Shown piece after piece: positions 22,830 through 31,955 of a DNA stretch of 32,000 nucleotides; positions within the stretch are counted from its first letter, which is position 1; the number at the start of each line of letters is the position of its first letter. This DNA is from Coprobacillaceae bacterium (GTDB lineage Bacteria; Bacillota_I; Bacilli_A; Erysipelotrichales; Coprobacillaceae). A model generated the notes under the pieces. The model had not been told where the DNA came from, ran no database searches, and saw nothing but the letters and a program-made list of their open reading frames with translations. Where the stretch lies: assembly GCA_963675515.1 (NCBI GenBank), contig OY776328.1, positions 870,001 to 902,000 of the forward strand, given 5' to 3'. The position numbers and the translations under genes are program-made.

Positions 22830-22860
22830 TTGACGTGGAGTTAACTCCATAAGCTAAGGT
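22830..22860 (+). promoter_or_regulatory. MerR-type promoter (19-nt spacer) with dyad operator, upstream of the AKR-MFS-SDR-flavodoxin genes
   Basis: TTGACG (22830-22835), the spacer tggagttaactccataagc (19 nt), then TAAGGT (22855-22860). The spacer contains the perfect 14-bp palindrome TGGAGTTAACTCCA (22836-22849). The ATG lies 36 nt downstream of the -10 box. The same operator at the same position recurs at 31925-31955 on the - strand. Confidence 0.7.
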
Positions 22861-22895
22861 TGATACAGGTAAAGAAAATAAAAATGGAGGAACTT

Positions 22896-23903
22896 ATGAA
22901 AAAACGAATTTTAGGTAATGGACTTGAAGTAAGCGCAATAGGACTTGGATGCATGGGTATGACCCACGGTTTCGGGAAACCTTCCGACCAAAAAGAGATG
23001 ATCCAGCTGATCCAGGATGCATTCAAAGCTGGGATTACAATGTTCGACACGGCTGAAGTTTATCAGGGAGCTGATGAACAAGGCAATATACTATATAATG
23101 AAGACTTGTTGGGTGAGGCGCTGAAGCCTTTCCGTGATCAGGTTGTGATCGCCACCAAGTGCGGCATCAAGATGGTCGATGGGAAACAGGTGCTCGATGC
23201 CCGCCCGGAAGTGATACGCGATTCACTTGAAGGATCATTGAAAAGGCTGCAGACTGATTATGTCGATCTTTATTATCTTCACCGGGTTGATCCGAACACT
23301 CCGATTGAAGTGGTGGCGCAAACCATGAAAGAATTGATGGCTGAAGGGAAAATCCGCCACTGGGGATTATCGGAAGCGGGAGTTGAGACAATAAGGAAAG
23401 CTCATGCCATCTGTCCGGTGACTGTGGTCGAAAGCGAATACTCGATCATGTGGCGTTCACCAGAAAAAGATCTTATACCGGTACTTAACGAACTGAATAT
23501 CGGATTCGTACCATTCGCACCGCTGGGAAAAGGTTTCCTGACTGGAACCGTGGATCTGAGTGCGACATTCCCTGACAATGACACCCGTTCGAAACAACCA
23601 CGTTTCAAACAGGAAGCAATGGCTGCCAATGTGAAAGTGCTCGATGTGGTAAAAGAAGTTGCCGCGAAGCACAATGCCACACCAGCCCAGATTGCGCTTG
23701 CTTGGCTGCTGTCAAAAGGGGATGACATTGTCCCAATTCCAGGATCGCGAAAACTGGAGAGGATTGAAGAAAACATCAAAGCCAGCGAGGTAGAGCTTAC
23801 CCAAGCGGATCTTGACTTGATTGAAAAGGCCCTTGATGAAGTTGATCTTGTGCTGGACCGTTGGGATCCAAACTCACCGCAGGCTAAAAGAGTAGGAAAA
23901 TAA
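22896..23903 (+). CDS. aldo/keto reductase family oxidoreductase
   Basis: The start is chosen at [22 protein letters not shown], with GGAGG 5 nt upstream. AKR motifs present are [22 protein letters not shown] and VPIPGSRK. Confidence 0.9.
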
Positions 23904-23906
23904 GCG

Positions 23907-25094
23907 ATGGAATTGGAAATAGAGATAGAAAAATCCGAAGGGGATAATCGTCTTTTTACCGGGAAGTTCATCCTGGCGGTAGTGATCCTGTTCGGTATCT
24001 GCATGTGCTCGAATATCGTGCTATCGGTCCTGACCATCTTTGCCAAGAATCTGACCGGATTGGACACTTATGCGGGATTGATGACTTCGGTCTTCACTCT
24101 GGCGGCCTTGTCGGTGCGCTTTGTCGCCGGCTTCCTGCTTGACAAGTTCAACTGCAAGAAGGTTGTGCTGATCGGAGTGGGAATGATGATTGGTGCGGCG
24201 GTACTGTTCATTGGCTGCAACACCATCTTCCAGGCCATTATCTACCGGGCCATCCAGGGGGTCGGTTTCGGGATTGCATCGACTGGGGCGAGCACCTATG
24301 TGACCAAGATCACCAATCCCAACCGCCTGCTTGAAGGGGTTGGATATGCGGCTATTGCGAACAGCCTAACCGGTGTTATCGGTCCTTCGATCGCCTTCAT
24401 GCTTATTGGCAGCAATTACGACAACTTCACTTTGCTTTTCATCGTGGCCACGGTGATGGCAATAGGAACGTTCGGGTTGATGCTTTTAGGCAAGGATGTG
24501 GAGATGACAAAGGTCGAGAAAAGCGTAGATGGTCAAGGCAAGATTGTCTGGGGGCTGCTGGCCTTGCCGATTGTCATCCTGTTCTTGAACTGTCTGACCC
24601 AAAGCGCGATAACTTCATTCGTGTCATTGTACGCGATTTCGCTTGGATTCGCCCAGGCCGGCCTGTTCTTCTCGGTCAATGCCATCGGGATGATTGCTTC
24701 ACGGTTTTTCATGAACCGGCTGGTGTCAAGATTCGGCCAGTTCAGGATGTTGCTTATGAATTCCGCGGTGTTCTTTACAAGCATCTTTCTGGTTTCGATG
24801 GTGCAAAACAACTGGCAGCTGGTCCTGCTGGCGATTCCTTCAGGATTTGCGATGGGGTCGGTGGCCCCGATCATCAATACTTATCTTATCAAGAACATGC
24901 CAAAGCATAAAAGCGGGATTGCCAATGCGACCTACTACGCCTCGATGGATATCGCCTATGCGATCGGTTCATTGATGTGGGGGGCGGTGGCTATGTATAT
25001 TTCTTACCGCCAGGTGTTCTTCATTGCCGCGATGATCCAGATTGCCTGCATGATTCTGAGCGTGGCTCAGACAAGATTGTATAAATCGAACTAA
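23907..25094 (+). CDS. MFS transporter
   Basis: 395 aa with about 12 hydrophobic segments. It starts 3 nt after the AKR stop, so it is probably co-transcribed. Confidence 0.85.
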
Positions 25095-25198
25095 ATTAGG
25101 TGCTATAAGTATCTTCAAGTGTTACAATGTGGTAAAGAGTGGCGCTTACAATATTTTATCCGATAAATTTGAAACTGGAAAAGAAAGGAATCAATATT

Positions 25199-30466: not shown

Positions 30467-30489
30467 GAATTTCAGTATCATCATAAGTA

Positions 30490-30522
30490 AAAAGACCCGT
30501 CAAAATTTGTGACGGGTCTTTT
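30490..30522. terminator. bidirectional Rho-independent terminator between the convergent LysR and Fe-S AKR genes
   Basis: AAAAGACCCGTCAaaatttgTGACGGGTCTTTT has a 9-bp G+C-rich core (13 bp including the A/T-tract pairs), flanked by A-tract and T-tract. Confidence 0.88.
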
Positions 30523-30539
30523 ATATCTTTACTTGATGA

Positions 30540-31634
30540 TTATTCGAATGTGGCAGCCACATCTTTGAGCAATTTGATGATCGGCAGTTTCTGCGGGCAG
30601 ATGTTCTCGCATTGGCCACACTCGATGCAATCTGACGCGTTGCCTTTGCCTTTGGTATGGACCCCATAGTAATAGCTGCTGTTCCAGTCGTTGAAGACCT
30701 TCTTGTCGTTGTAGCAGCCAAACAAGTCGGGAATCGAGATGTTCATCGGGCAGCCATCGACACAGTAGCGACAGGCAGTGCAGTCGATCCGGTCGAGCGA
30801 CTCGAGAATTTCACGGACTTTTACCACCGCTTCGTGTTCCTCATCGGTGAATGGTTTGAAATCCTTCATGAAGCTGATATTGTCATTCATCTGTTCGATG
30901 GTGCTCATGCCCGAAAGAACCTTGTAGACCCCTTCGAATGAAGCCGCAAATCTTAATGCATAGCTGGCATAGCTTGCGTTTGGATCTAGTTTGTCGAATA
31001 CCGCCTTGGCAGTCTCAGGCAGGTTGACCAGTCCGCCACCCTTGATCGGTTCCATTATCAATATCGGTTTTCCGTGCTTGCGGCAGATGTCGTAGGCTTT
31101 TTTACTTTGGACACTCGGATTATTGATGTCCATGTAGTTGAACTGGATCTGGACAATTTCGATTTCCGGATGTTCGGTCAATATCATATCCAGGACATCG
31201 GAAGTATCATGGAAAGAGATTCCGACGTGCTTGATTTTTCCTTCGGATTTTAGTTCCTGGGCGATTTCATAGGCCCGGTGCTTTTTGAAATGTTCATAGT
31301 TGTGGCGATCCTGGGCATGCATCAGGTAGTAGTCGAAATACTCCACTCCGGTGTCTTTTAGCTGCTGCATGAAAAATGGCCGGATAGCCTCTTCGCTGTT
31401 GAAGTAGCTGACGGTCAGCTTGTCGGTAAGAATGAATGAGTCGCGGGGATAACGGGCCACCAGGCAGTCCTTAAGGGCGAGTTCGCTTTTCCCGTTGATA
31501 TAGCCATGGGCCGTGTCGAAATAATTGAACCCGGCATCCATGTAGGTATCAATCATTAAATTGAACTGTTCGTAATCCACTTCGCCGTTTTTCATGGGCA
31601 GGCGCATGCACCCAAATCCGAATTTGTCTACCAT
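30540..31634 (-). CDS. aldo/keto reductase fused to a C-terminal 2x[4Fe-4S] ferredoxin-like domain
   Basis: 364 aa. The AKR N-terminal part carries GFGCMRLP and FDTAHGY. The C-terminal part carries CTACRYCVDGCP and CIECGQCENICP cysteine clusters. RBS is GAGGAG. Confidence 0.88.
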   Translation of the reverse strand: MVDKFGFGCMRLPMKNGEVDYEQFNLMIDTYMDAGFNYFDTAHGYINGKSELALKDCLVARYPRDSFILTDKLTVSYFNSEEAIRPFFMQQLKDTGVEYFDYYLMHAQDRHNYEHFKKHRAYEIAQELKSEGKIKHVGISFHDTSDVLDMILTEHPEIEIVQIQFNYMDINNPSVQSKKAYDICRKHGKPILIMEPIKGGGLVNLPETAKAVFDKLDPNASYASYALRFAASFEGVYKVLSGMSTIEQMNDNISFMKDFKPFTDEEHEAVVKVREILESLDRIDCTACRYCVDGCPMNISIPDLFGCYNDKKVFNDWNSSYYYGVHTKGKGNASDCIECGQCENICPQKLPIIKLLKDVAATFE

Positions 31635-31924
31635 TTGAATCTCCTCTTTTTCTTTAATCTAGTTGTTTTTCGCAATTTTGTTTACGCAAGTCAATACATT
31701 AATGCTAGCGGACATCCAATGCATATTAGTTTAATACAAAATCAAAAATTGCCTCTGGATTGAAGTCCCAGGGTATTAAAAAATATCGATTGTTTCAATT
31801 ACCAACTTCATCGTTATGTATGCAATTATATGGTTGGATATCCCGCATTAATAGGGCTATAATTAGGTTAAGGTACCATTTTGAAATATGATGGTCATTT
31901 TGCACCTTTAAAACCTCTATATTG

Positions 31925-31955
31925 ATTATAATTGATGGAGTTAACTCCATGTCAA
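31925..31955 (-). promoter_or_regulatory. MerR-type promoter (19-nt spacer) with the same dyad operator, facing the Fe-S AKR gene
   Basis: The - strand reads TTGACA (31955-31950), the spacer tggagttaactccatcaat (19 nt), then TATAAT (31930-31925). The 16-bp perfect palindrome ATGGAGTTAACTCCAT lies at 31935-31950. The first 21 of 22 nt from the -35 box onward are identical to the promoter at 22830. Confidence 0.65.

Follow-up and report, generated by a model that had tools for sequence, protein, structure and literature searches.

Two promoters with one operator

What controls two inward-facing promoters that lie 9 kb apart and carry the same operator? The question is raised by a 32,000-nucleotide (nt) stretch of the genome of a Coprobacillaceae bacterium (contig OY776328.1, positions 870,001 to 902,000), the whole of which is called the window here. 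The first promoter, P1, lies on the plus strand at 22830-22860, reads TTGACG tggagttaactccataagc TAAGGT, and precedes genes for an aldo/keto reductase (AKR), a major facilitator superfamily (MFS) transporter, a short-chain dehydrogenase (SDR), and a flavodoxin. The second, P2, lies on the minus strand at 31955-31925, reads TTGACA tggagttaactccatcaat TATAAT, and faces a gene for an AKR with a 4Fe-4S domain (Fe-S AKR). We consider it likely that P1 and P2 are promoters of the MerR type which share one local regulon with a third, and that a MerR-family regulator of the NmlR/AdhR kind serves them.

Both promoters have a 19-nt spacer in which the 15-mer TGGAGTTAACTCCAT starts at the first position, and TGGAGTTAACTCCA is present in the window as two exact copies, each beginning at spacer position 1. 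The stretch common to the two sites, GTTGAC[G/A]TGGAGTTAACTCCAT, is identical at 21 of 22 positions, and outside these 22 nt the likeness stops. By exact search, the 14-mer dyad was found in the window only at 22836-22849 and 31936-31949, and the relaxed pattern TGGAG-N4-CTCCA gave no additional exact site there. Going by base composition, 32 kb should contain about 1e-4 occurrences of the exact 14-mer, so chance does not explain two copies that sit in one register of two promoter-like sites. A first-pass annotation of the window had described two promoters with 19-nt spacers, a common 15-mer and a non-random 21/22 match, and sequence reading and exact search agree with it on all of these points. 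At P2, the last A of the -35 box lengthens the dyad into a perfect 16-bp palindrome, ATGGAGTTAACTCCAT.

In P1 and P2, as well as in a third promoter (P3) of related loci described below, the centre of the dyad falls between spacer positions 7 and 8. MerR-family promoters have 7-8 bp between the 3' end of the -35 box and the operator centre (PMC5045206). The P1 and P2 dyads show this fixed distance together with the over-long 19-20 bp spacer of MerR-controlled promoters. A literature search for the operator string found GGAGTTAACTCC in no paper and turned up only the ZntR variant core. Chance and a LysR operator were both considered as readings of the sites and rejected.

The operator across bacterial genomes

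One genome per bacterial species was scanned for TTGACNTGGAGTTAACTCCAT, in which only the -35 box and the dyad are fixed, and 88 stretches with 89 instances were retrieved. The hosts of the 21-mer among these 88 species genomes are mostly Bacillota, with a few gammaproteobacterial, Bacteroides, and other metagenome-assembled genomes (MAGs); Bacillus subtilis is not among 80 of the 88 exact-match records, those listed by name. The sequence TAnnnT stands exactly 19 nt from the -35 box in 79 of the 89 instances, as against 0-18 at the other spacings from 14 to 24. Neighbouring MerR genes were called with a MerR hidden Markov model (HMM) built from the fetched operator loci. They are cis-linked to the operator in 55 of the 89 instances, as the first downstream gene (n = 15), as a later co-directional gene within 2.1 kb (n = 33), or in directly divergent orientation (n = 7). 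Another 29 instances have no MerR gene in the fetched stretch, several of them with a very short fetched flank. Because of the 19-nt register of TAnnnT and the linkage to MerR genes across genomes, we read the motif as a MerR-family operator promoter, for which the comparative evidence is strong and which is how the two sites had first been annotated. The genes found behind the operator elsewhere encode AKRs (n = 12), Zn alcohol dehydrogenases (Zn-ADH, n = 4), carboxymuconolactone decarboxylases (CMD, n = 3), MFS transporters (n = 3), SDRs (n = 2), cupins (n = 2), flavodoxins (n = 2), and others. Of the 88 stretches, 87 contain the 21-mer once and one (L034) contains it twice.

The MerR proteins adjoining the identical 21-mer carry Cys (n = 21), Lys (n = 26), or Arg (n = 10) at position 52, and their DNA-reading residues D15, R18, Y19, and K/R22 are nearly invariant across the three groups. 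Several effector classes thus use one operator core, so the effector class must be read from the regulator and not from the site. The Arg52 group includes gammaproteobacterial MerRs with C-terminal Cys pairs beside HMA, MerT-like, and P-type ATPase genes. On five gammaproteobacterial MAG contigs (L021, L034 with its two copies, L038, L039, and L065), the 21-mer precedes HMA-domain, MerT-like, and P-type ATPase genes, and the MerRs in the fetched stretches of L034 and L065 bear the C-terminal Cys pairs. A Bacillaceae-type group of 24 loci (L004, L006, L015, L027, L055, L059, and others) has the order operator, 105-aa multi-pass membrane protein, 132-aa Lys52 MerR. The membrane protein belongs to no Pfam family, and the Lys52 group is an uncharacterised MerR subclass.

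A third promoter and a regulator gene in related loci

The window has no MerR open reading frame (ORF) of at least 40 aa (MerR HMM, E<=0.01). A decayed merR in the P2 leader or beside the IS110 insertion described below was also considered and rejected, as the only tblastn matches to 63 MerR proteins (E<=10) were weak coiled-coil noise lying within other genes. HMM and tblastn searches thus agree with the first-pass annotation, which had found no MerR protein in the window and had placed the sensor perhaps just beyond position 32000. Syntenic relatives support this second suggestion, for in all eight of them a P3 promoter lies 71-82 nt beyond P2 on the opposite strand and drives a gene for a 129-aa MerR.

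The first relative (L169), with an AKR 91% identical to that behind P1, has the order AraC, P1, AKR-MFS-SDR-flavodoxin, MFS, LysR, two extra genes, Fe-S AKR on the minus strand, P2, P3, and merR. Its P3 reads TTGACG tggagttgactccatttga TAACAT and drives this gene directly. The others (L170-L176), which are Erysipelotrichaceae MAGs and Logan contigs with an AKR 90% identical, have the same block in a different left-hand context. Their P3, TTGACA tggagtcgactccatttga TAAACT, drives SDR-merR-AKR. The distance from the -35 box of P2 to that of P3 is 71 nt in L170 and 82 nt in L169. Because of the 71-nt distance in L170 and the gap-free alignment of the last positions of the window with the L170 spacer (Table 1), P3 is predicted at about 32026, some 26 nt past the window end, followed after another 1 kb or so by merR, provided that the locus is arranged as in L170.

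P1 is kept in L169 and L170-172, with substitutions confined to the central 4 nt. Five intact operator variants differ only in these 4 nt (TTAA, TTCA, TAGG, TTGA, TCGA), and TGGAG and CTCCA are invariant. HiNmlR, the NmlR of Haemophilus influenzae, touches the outer parts of the half-sites and not the operator centre (PMC5001606), and variation in the central 4 nt only agrees with a regulator that leaves the centre uncontacted (PMC5001606).

The backbone to the left of P1 (12824-22523; ATP-binding cassette sugar transporter, galK, galT, epimerase, LacI, AraC) is 91% identical to L169; for the P1-to-P2 block, identity is 76-85% with L169 and 85-86% with L170. Homology between the window and L170 begins 28 nt upstream of the P1 -35 box, and HxlR and old-yellow-enzyme genes lie to the left of the block in L170. 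The block looks like a unit with a history of its own, apparently one of exchange between lineages. A plasmid collection held nothing similar to window positions 22000-32000. A promoter with a 19-nt spacer and another dyad (TTGACT tgaagttaactttaagtgg TATTCT) is present at 6503-6533 of L170 before an esterase/peptidase_S9-like gene, and is probably the site of another MerR paralogue.

The candidate regulator

The AKR behind P1 is 100% identical to a database protein, P0001, from a 2,881,239-bp contig, presumably that of the source genome. A search with the L169 MerR as query brought up P0124 (129 aa) and P0127 (131 aa), each from a contig of that same length and sharing its sources with P0001. 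Between P0124 and the L170-type MerR, identity is 88%, close to the 90% found for the AKRs of the window and L170. The source genome thus very probably encodes the regulator.

P0124, P0127, and two further proteins, P0121 and P0123, have a Cys52 within F(I/V)KCM(R/K) that aligns with the conserved Cys of HiNmlR. In P0124, P0123, and P0121, it is the sole cysteine, within the motif F(I/V)KCMRQAG, and C-terminal Cys/His ligands are absent. Cys52 is likewise the only cysteine of P0127, which has no metal ligands. The regulators are 129-131 aa long and end soon after the coiled-coil helix of dimerisation, without a C-terminal effector-binding domain. Their top NCBIfam model is NmlR (NF041849) with 101-112 bits, which is under the equivalog cut-off of 175 bits; the ZntR, CueR, CadR, and MerR models score 52-63 bits, with cut-offs of 143-168 for ZntR, CueR, and CadR. 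The closest solved structures are 3GP4, HiNmlR (5D8C, 5E01, 5D90), and 3GPV. The promoter of the P0127-type paralogue is seen in another locus (L178, 2987-3017), where TTGACA tggacttatagcgttattg TATAAT, with a 19-nt spacer and a poorly symmetric site, drives merR-flavodoxin_4.

The proposed regulon and its alternatives

By analogy with work on MerR, CueR, and HiNmlR, the regulon may operate as follows. The regulator would be a homodimeric MerR of the NmlR/AdhR kind without an effector domain, most likely P0124, and its gene would lie about 1 kb beyond position 32000 inside an SDR-merR-AKR operon driven by P3. It would bind the dyad TGGAG-N4-CTCCA, centred 7 bp past the -35 box within the 19-bp spacer, and in its unmodified form would keep the promoters poorly active. 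Upon modification of the sensor thiol by a reactive electrophile, possibly a carbonyl, the regulator would under-twist and kink the spacer, bringing the -35 and -10 boxes into line for sigma-A RNA polymerase. The output would be AKR-MFS-SDR-flavodoxin from P1, the Fe-S AKR from P2, and the regulator's own operon from P3.

Several points weigh against this proposal. The case for regulation at P1 and P2 is as a whole a comparative one, and the place of the regulator next to P2 is predicted from synteny with relatives. P0124 scores 101 bits with the NmlR model against the cut-off of 175, and neither the window nor the blocks of L169-L176 contain a gene of the adhC/estD type, the classical NmlR/AdhR target. 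As both the cut-off and the adhC-type target fail, we file the regulator as an NmlR/AdhR-like member of the MerR family and not as an NmlR orthologue. The AdhR/NmlR type that had been suggested from the promoters alone stands in so far as Cys52, protein size, the top NmlR model, and the HiNmlR structures support it, and does not stand as regards equivalog cut-off and target. The further points against the proposal are those from which the alternatives draw.

One such alternative, which survives best although we think it unlikely, is that no one sensor is dedicated to the sites, which would instead be read by another MerR paralogue (P0127 or others) or by several paralogues that cross-talk. P0124 and P0127 are 68% identical and both have D15, R18, Y/F19, and K22, so a second paralogue shares the DNA-reading residues. 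Moreover, three MerR effector classes adjoin the identical operator in other genomes; Lys52 and Arg52 MerRs, metal-type included, are found beside the same 21-mer, and the operator does not single out thiol sensors. However, the P0127-type promoter in relatives has a different, poorly symmetric site (TGGACTTATAGCGTT), while the promoter of the P0124-type gene itself contains TGGAG-N4-CTCCA, and all relatives have this gene physically linked to P1 and P2. The first-pass claim that one MerR-like sensor co-controls both targets is therefore supported by the shared operator and by synteny; with two paralogous MerRs in the presumed source genome, control by a single sensor is something that we infer.

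Somewhat less probable again is a reading in which P2 is the fossil of a promoter, or the promoter of something else such as a small RNA or peptide, the Fe-S AKR is transcribed from an unrecognised promoter closer to its start codon, and P1 is the only working target in the window. The 290 nt between P2 and the AKR start codon are unusually long, and the leader includes an 11-codon mini-ORF (31898-31863) with an AGGTG ribosome-binding site that the L170 leader lacks. The operator is upstream of none of the 29 closest metagenomic homologues of the Fe-S AKR (54-72% identity), so the link between P2 and the Fe-S AKR is, by this comparison, lineage-specific. In L170-L176, moreover, the Fe-S AKR is a pseudogene split into two to four ORFs, and P2 has TAGAA in place of TGGAG as its left half-site (in L170, for example, at 16080-17273 and 17483-17513, respectively). 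These loci are near-identical, and the decay of P2 and AKR counts as one evolutionary event. The flavodoxin gene is shortened to 54 aa in L173 and L174, and the locus is decaying in this lineage.

On the other hand, the operator and -10 box of P2 are perfect in the window, the AKR is intact, and a terminator search of the leader was negative. An operator promoter is also placed upstream of an intact Fe-S AKR in three other loci. In L169, the equivalent of P2 reads TTGACA tggagtaggctccataagt TAAAAT and has a leader of about 150 nt; in Beduini massiliensis (L013), the promoter directly precedes the homologue, leaving 38 nt of leader; and Ca. Limiplasma (L074) has merR between the operator and the Fe-S AKR. 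Decay of the operator is confined to loci with a broken AKR, a pattern that fits selection on the operator only while the gene works. We conclude that P2 probably drives the Fe-S AKR. A leader stretch of about 60 nt (AATGGTACCTTAACC...GGATATCCAACCATAT) is conserved with L170. A riboswitch or structured leader 3' of P2 was rejected, with no Rfam match and a fold z-score of -0.89.

A metal-responsive regulon of the ZntR/CadR type is very improbable. The operator core in the window matches that of the ZntR box save for the centre (PMC1526738), and the gammaproteobacterial loci described above pair the 21-mer with metal-type genes. Against this, Cys52 is the lone cysteine of P0124, P0123, and P0121, which lack Cys/His ligands at the C-terminus; the spacer has 19 nt instead of 20; and the targets are oxidoreductases, a flavodoxin, and an MFS transporter, with no metal transporter among them.

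Finally, the inverted copies 9 kb apart could be terminal inverted repeats of a transposable unit, a condition under which the first-pass annotation would have given up its own reading, and the left context of the block in L170, unlike that in the window and L169, and the IS110 element inside the block might seem to agree; but this was rejected and is given practically no weight, as P1/P2 similarity stops beyond 22 nt, the conserved block runs past P2 to P3 and merR, the near-universally single-copy 21-mer stands in promoter register with a -10 box, the copies in relatives differ in the central 4 nt, and IS110 is a separate recent insertion of a family that, to our knowledge, has no such terminal repeats.

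Genes and features of the window

Table 1. Promoters, genes, and other features at and between P1 and P2
Feature	Position	Strand	Basis or detail
P1, MerR-type promoter	22830..22860	+	-35 TTGACG 22830-22835; spacer 22836-22854; -10 TAAGGT 22855-22860
P1 dyad TGGAGTT-AACTCCA	22836-22849	+	Within 19-nt spacer
AKR, first gene of P1 operon	22896-23903	+	Pfam Aldo_ket_red, 273 bits
MFS transporter, second gene of P1 operon	23907-25094	+	Pfam MFS_1; 4 nt past AKR stop
SDR, third gene of P1 operon	25199-26029	+	Pfam adh_short
Flavodoxin_4, fourth and last gene of P1 operon	26098-26601	+	Pfam PF12682
Terminator-like hairpin and T run	26619..26647	+	13-pair stem AAATCATCCTGAATCGTTCAGGGTGATTT, then TTCTTTTG
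IS110-family insertion	26790..28349	-	Transposase 28169->26916; Pfam DEDD_Tnp_IS110 and Transposase_20
Second MFS transporter	28354/28360-29532	+	Pfam
LysR regulator	29567-30466	+	Pfam
Hairpin terminator, convergent LysR / Fe-S AKR	30490..30522	.	13-pair stem
Fe-S AKR, AKR fused to C-terminal 4Fe-4S dicluster domain	30540..31634	-	Pfam Aldo_ket_red and Fer4 families
P2-to-Fe-S AKR leader, 290 nt	31635..31924	-	Sequence reading
P2, MerR-type promoter	31925..31955	-	-35 TTGACA 31955-31950; dyad 31949-31936; -10 TATAAT 31930-31925
Start of predicted P2-P3 divergent spacer	31956..32000	.	Aligns gap-free with L170 spacer

Pfam confirms the two AKRs, the SDR, the flavodoxin, and the two MFS transporters listed in the first-pass annotation, and adds an IS110 transposase and a LysR regulator, neither of which its title had named. 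In the P1 operon, the leader before the AKR is 35 nt long with a GGAGG ribosome-binding site at 22886-22890. The top NCBIfam match of this AKR is the methylglyoxal reductase YdjG, at 170 bits far under the cut-off of 550, and the SDR matches the PRK06180 oxidoreductase with 311 bits, over the cut-off of 298. The gene order at the first MFS transporter is identical in L169-L176. The hairpin behind the flavodoxin is the probable end of the operon. Upstream of P1, an AraC-family gene is found at 21654-22520.

The IS110 transposase matches the NCBIfam IS110 RNA-guided transposase with 204 bits. The element is missing from all eight relatives (L169-L176). Its junctions are ...GAGCTAACTAT / ATTTAAATC and ...GGAATGACTAT / GAAC, and L170 has the uninterrupted GGAGGAATAACTATGAAC. 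The insertion point lies some 10 nt before the second MFS start codon, so that the gene's own TGATATAAT promoter region is cut off from it. The insertion is recent and no member of the regulon. An outward-facing TTGACT-17-TAATAT lies inside the IS110 end at 28318-28346, and the 5' non-coding part of about 180 nt (28170-28349) could encode a bridge RNA.

No TGGAG-N4-CTCCA site is found upstream of or near the unit of the second MFS and LysR genes (28354..30466), which are therefore operator-less and only candidate members of the regulon. The island had been described as bracketed by the two promoters. Both promoters are real, but the bracketing is incidental because the regulon continues beyond P2, and IS110 and the operator-less MFS-LysR unit lie inside it.

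Implications

The locus appears as a MerR-type activator regulon for oxidoreductases and an exporter, a well-known design, and is probably thiol-switched. The candidate regulon comprises three promoters and about nine genes, and its sensor would be an uncharacterised NmlR/AdhR-like protein of gut Erysipelotrichaceae. The locus also offers a defined operator usable for genome-wide scans. That an identical 21-mer serves MerRs of thiol, metal, and unknown type calls for caution in motif-based regulon prediction. Architecture and mechanism are otherwise textbook MerR, and the sole part with real discovery potential is the pair of Fe-S AKR and flavodoxin, the chemistry of which is uncharacterised.

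Tentatively, and with more doubt than confidence, we suggest that what anaerobic gut Erysipelotrichaceae have here is not a formaldehyde/S-nitrosoglutathione NmlR system but a separate thiol-switch circuit under a MerR protein. In such a circuit, a flavodoxin and an Fe-S AKR coupled to AKR, SDR, and exporter might dispose reductively of a diet- or host-derived electrophile (quinone, alpha,beta-unsaturated carbonyl, dicarbonyl), through a plug-and-play TGGAG-N4-CTCCA core that thiol-sensing, metal-sensing, and Lys52 MerRs have in common across phyla.

Comparison with known systems

HiNmlR, with NmlR relatives in Neisseria and Streptococcus pneumoniae, resembles the candidate regulator as a short MerR without a C-terminal sensor domain, whose Cys54 corresponds to Cys52 here. 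Its contacts Arg20, Phe21, and Lys24 correspond to Arg18, Phe/Tyr19, and Lys22, and the G-C at position 5 from the dyad centre is typical of NmlR operators (PMC5001606). The two differ in that the contact residue Tyr17 of HiNmlR is Asp15 here. HiNmlR also serves two overlapping divergent promoters, with embedded -35 boxes, from a single shared operator; the regulon considered here has three separate operators, each in its own 19-bp spacer.

The AdhR (YraB) of B. subtilis is a Gram-positive NmlR-clade regulator and likewise has Cys52. The clade's Cys (Cys54 of HiNmlR, Cys52 of AdhR) is absolutely conserved and required for induction by formaldehyde (PMC4776306). AdhR activates carbonyl-stress genes upon formaldehyde or methylglyoxal, one of them for a protein of the CMD family (PMC4776306). 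The operator seen here precedes CMD, Zn-ADH, and SDR genes in other genomes, while its targets in the present locus are two AKRs, an SDR, a flavodoxin, and an MFS transporter.

ZntR/PzntA of Escherichia coli shares MerR-type promoter logic with P1 and P2. The ZntR consensus ACTCTGGAGTCGACTCCAGAGT contains TGGAGTCGACTCCA (PMC1526738), which is also the operator core of the L170 P3. The PzntA core, TGGAG-TCGA-CTCCA, is thus identical to the P3 operator in L170-L176, and only the uncontacted centre sets it apart from the sites in the window (PMC1526738). ZntR differs in its 22-bp palindrome and 20-bp spacer, in sensing Zn, Cd, or Pb via Cys/His ligands that are absent here, and in its P-type ATPase target.

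The archetype of the family, MerR/PmerT of Tn21 and Tn501, differs in its half-sites (TCCGTAC-4-GTACGGA; PMC1526738), in Hg as effector, and in its operon. It is like P1 and P2 in the 19-bp spacer that encloses a dyad, and activation there by distortion of the DNA is what we propose for the present promoters.

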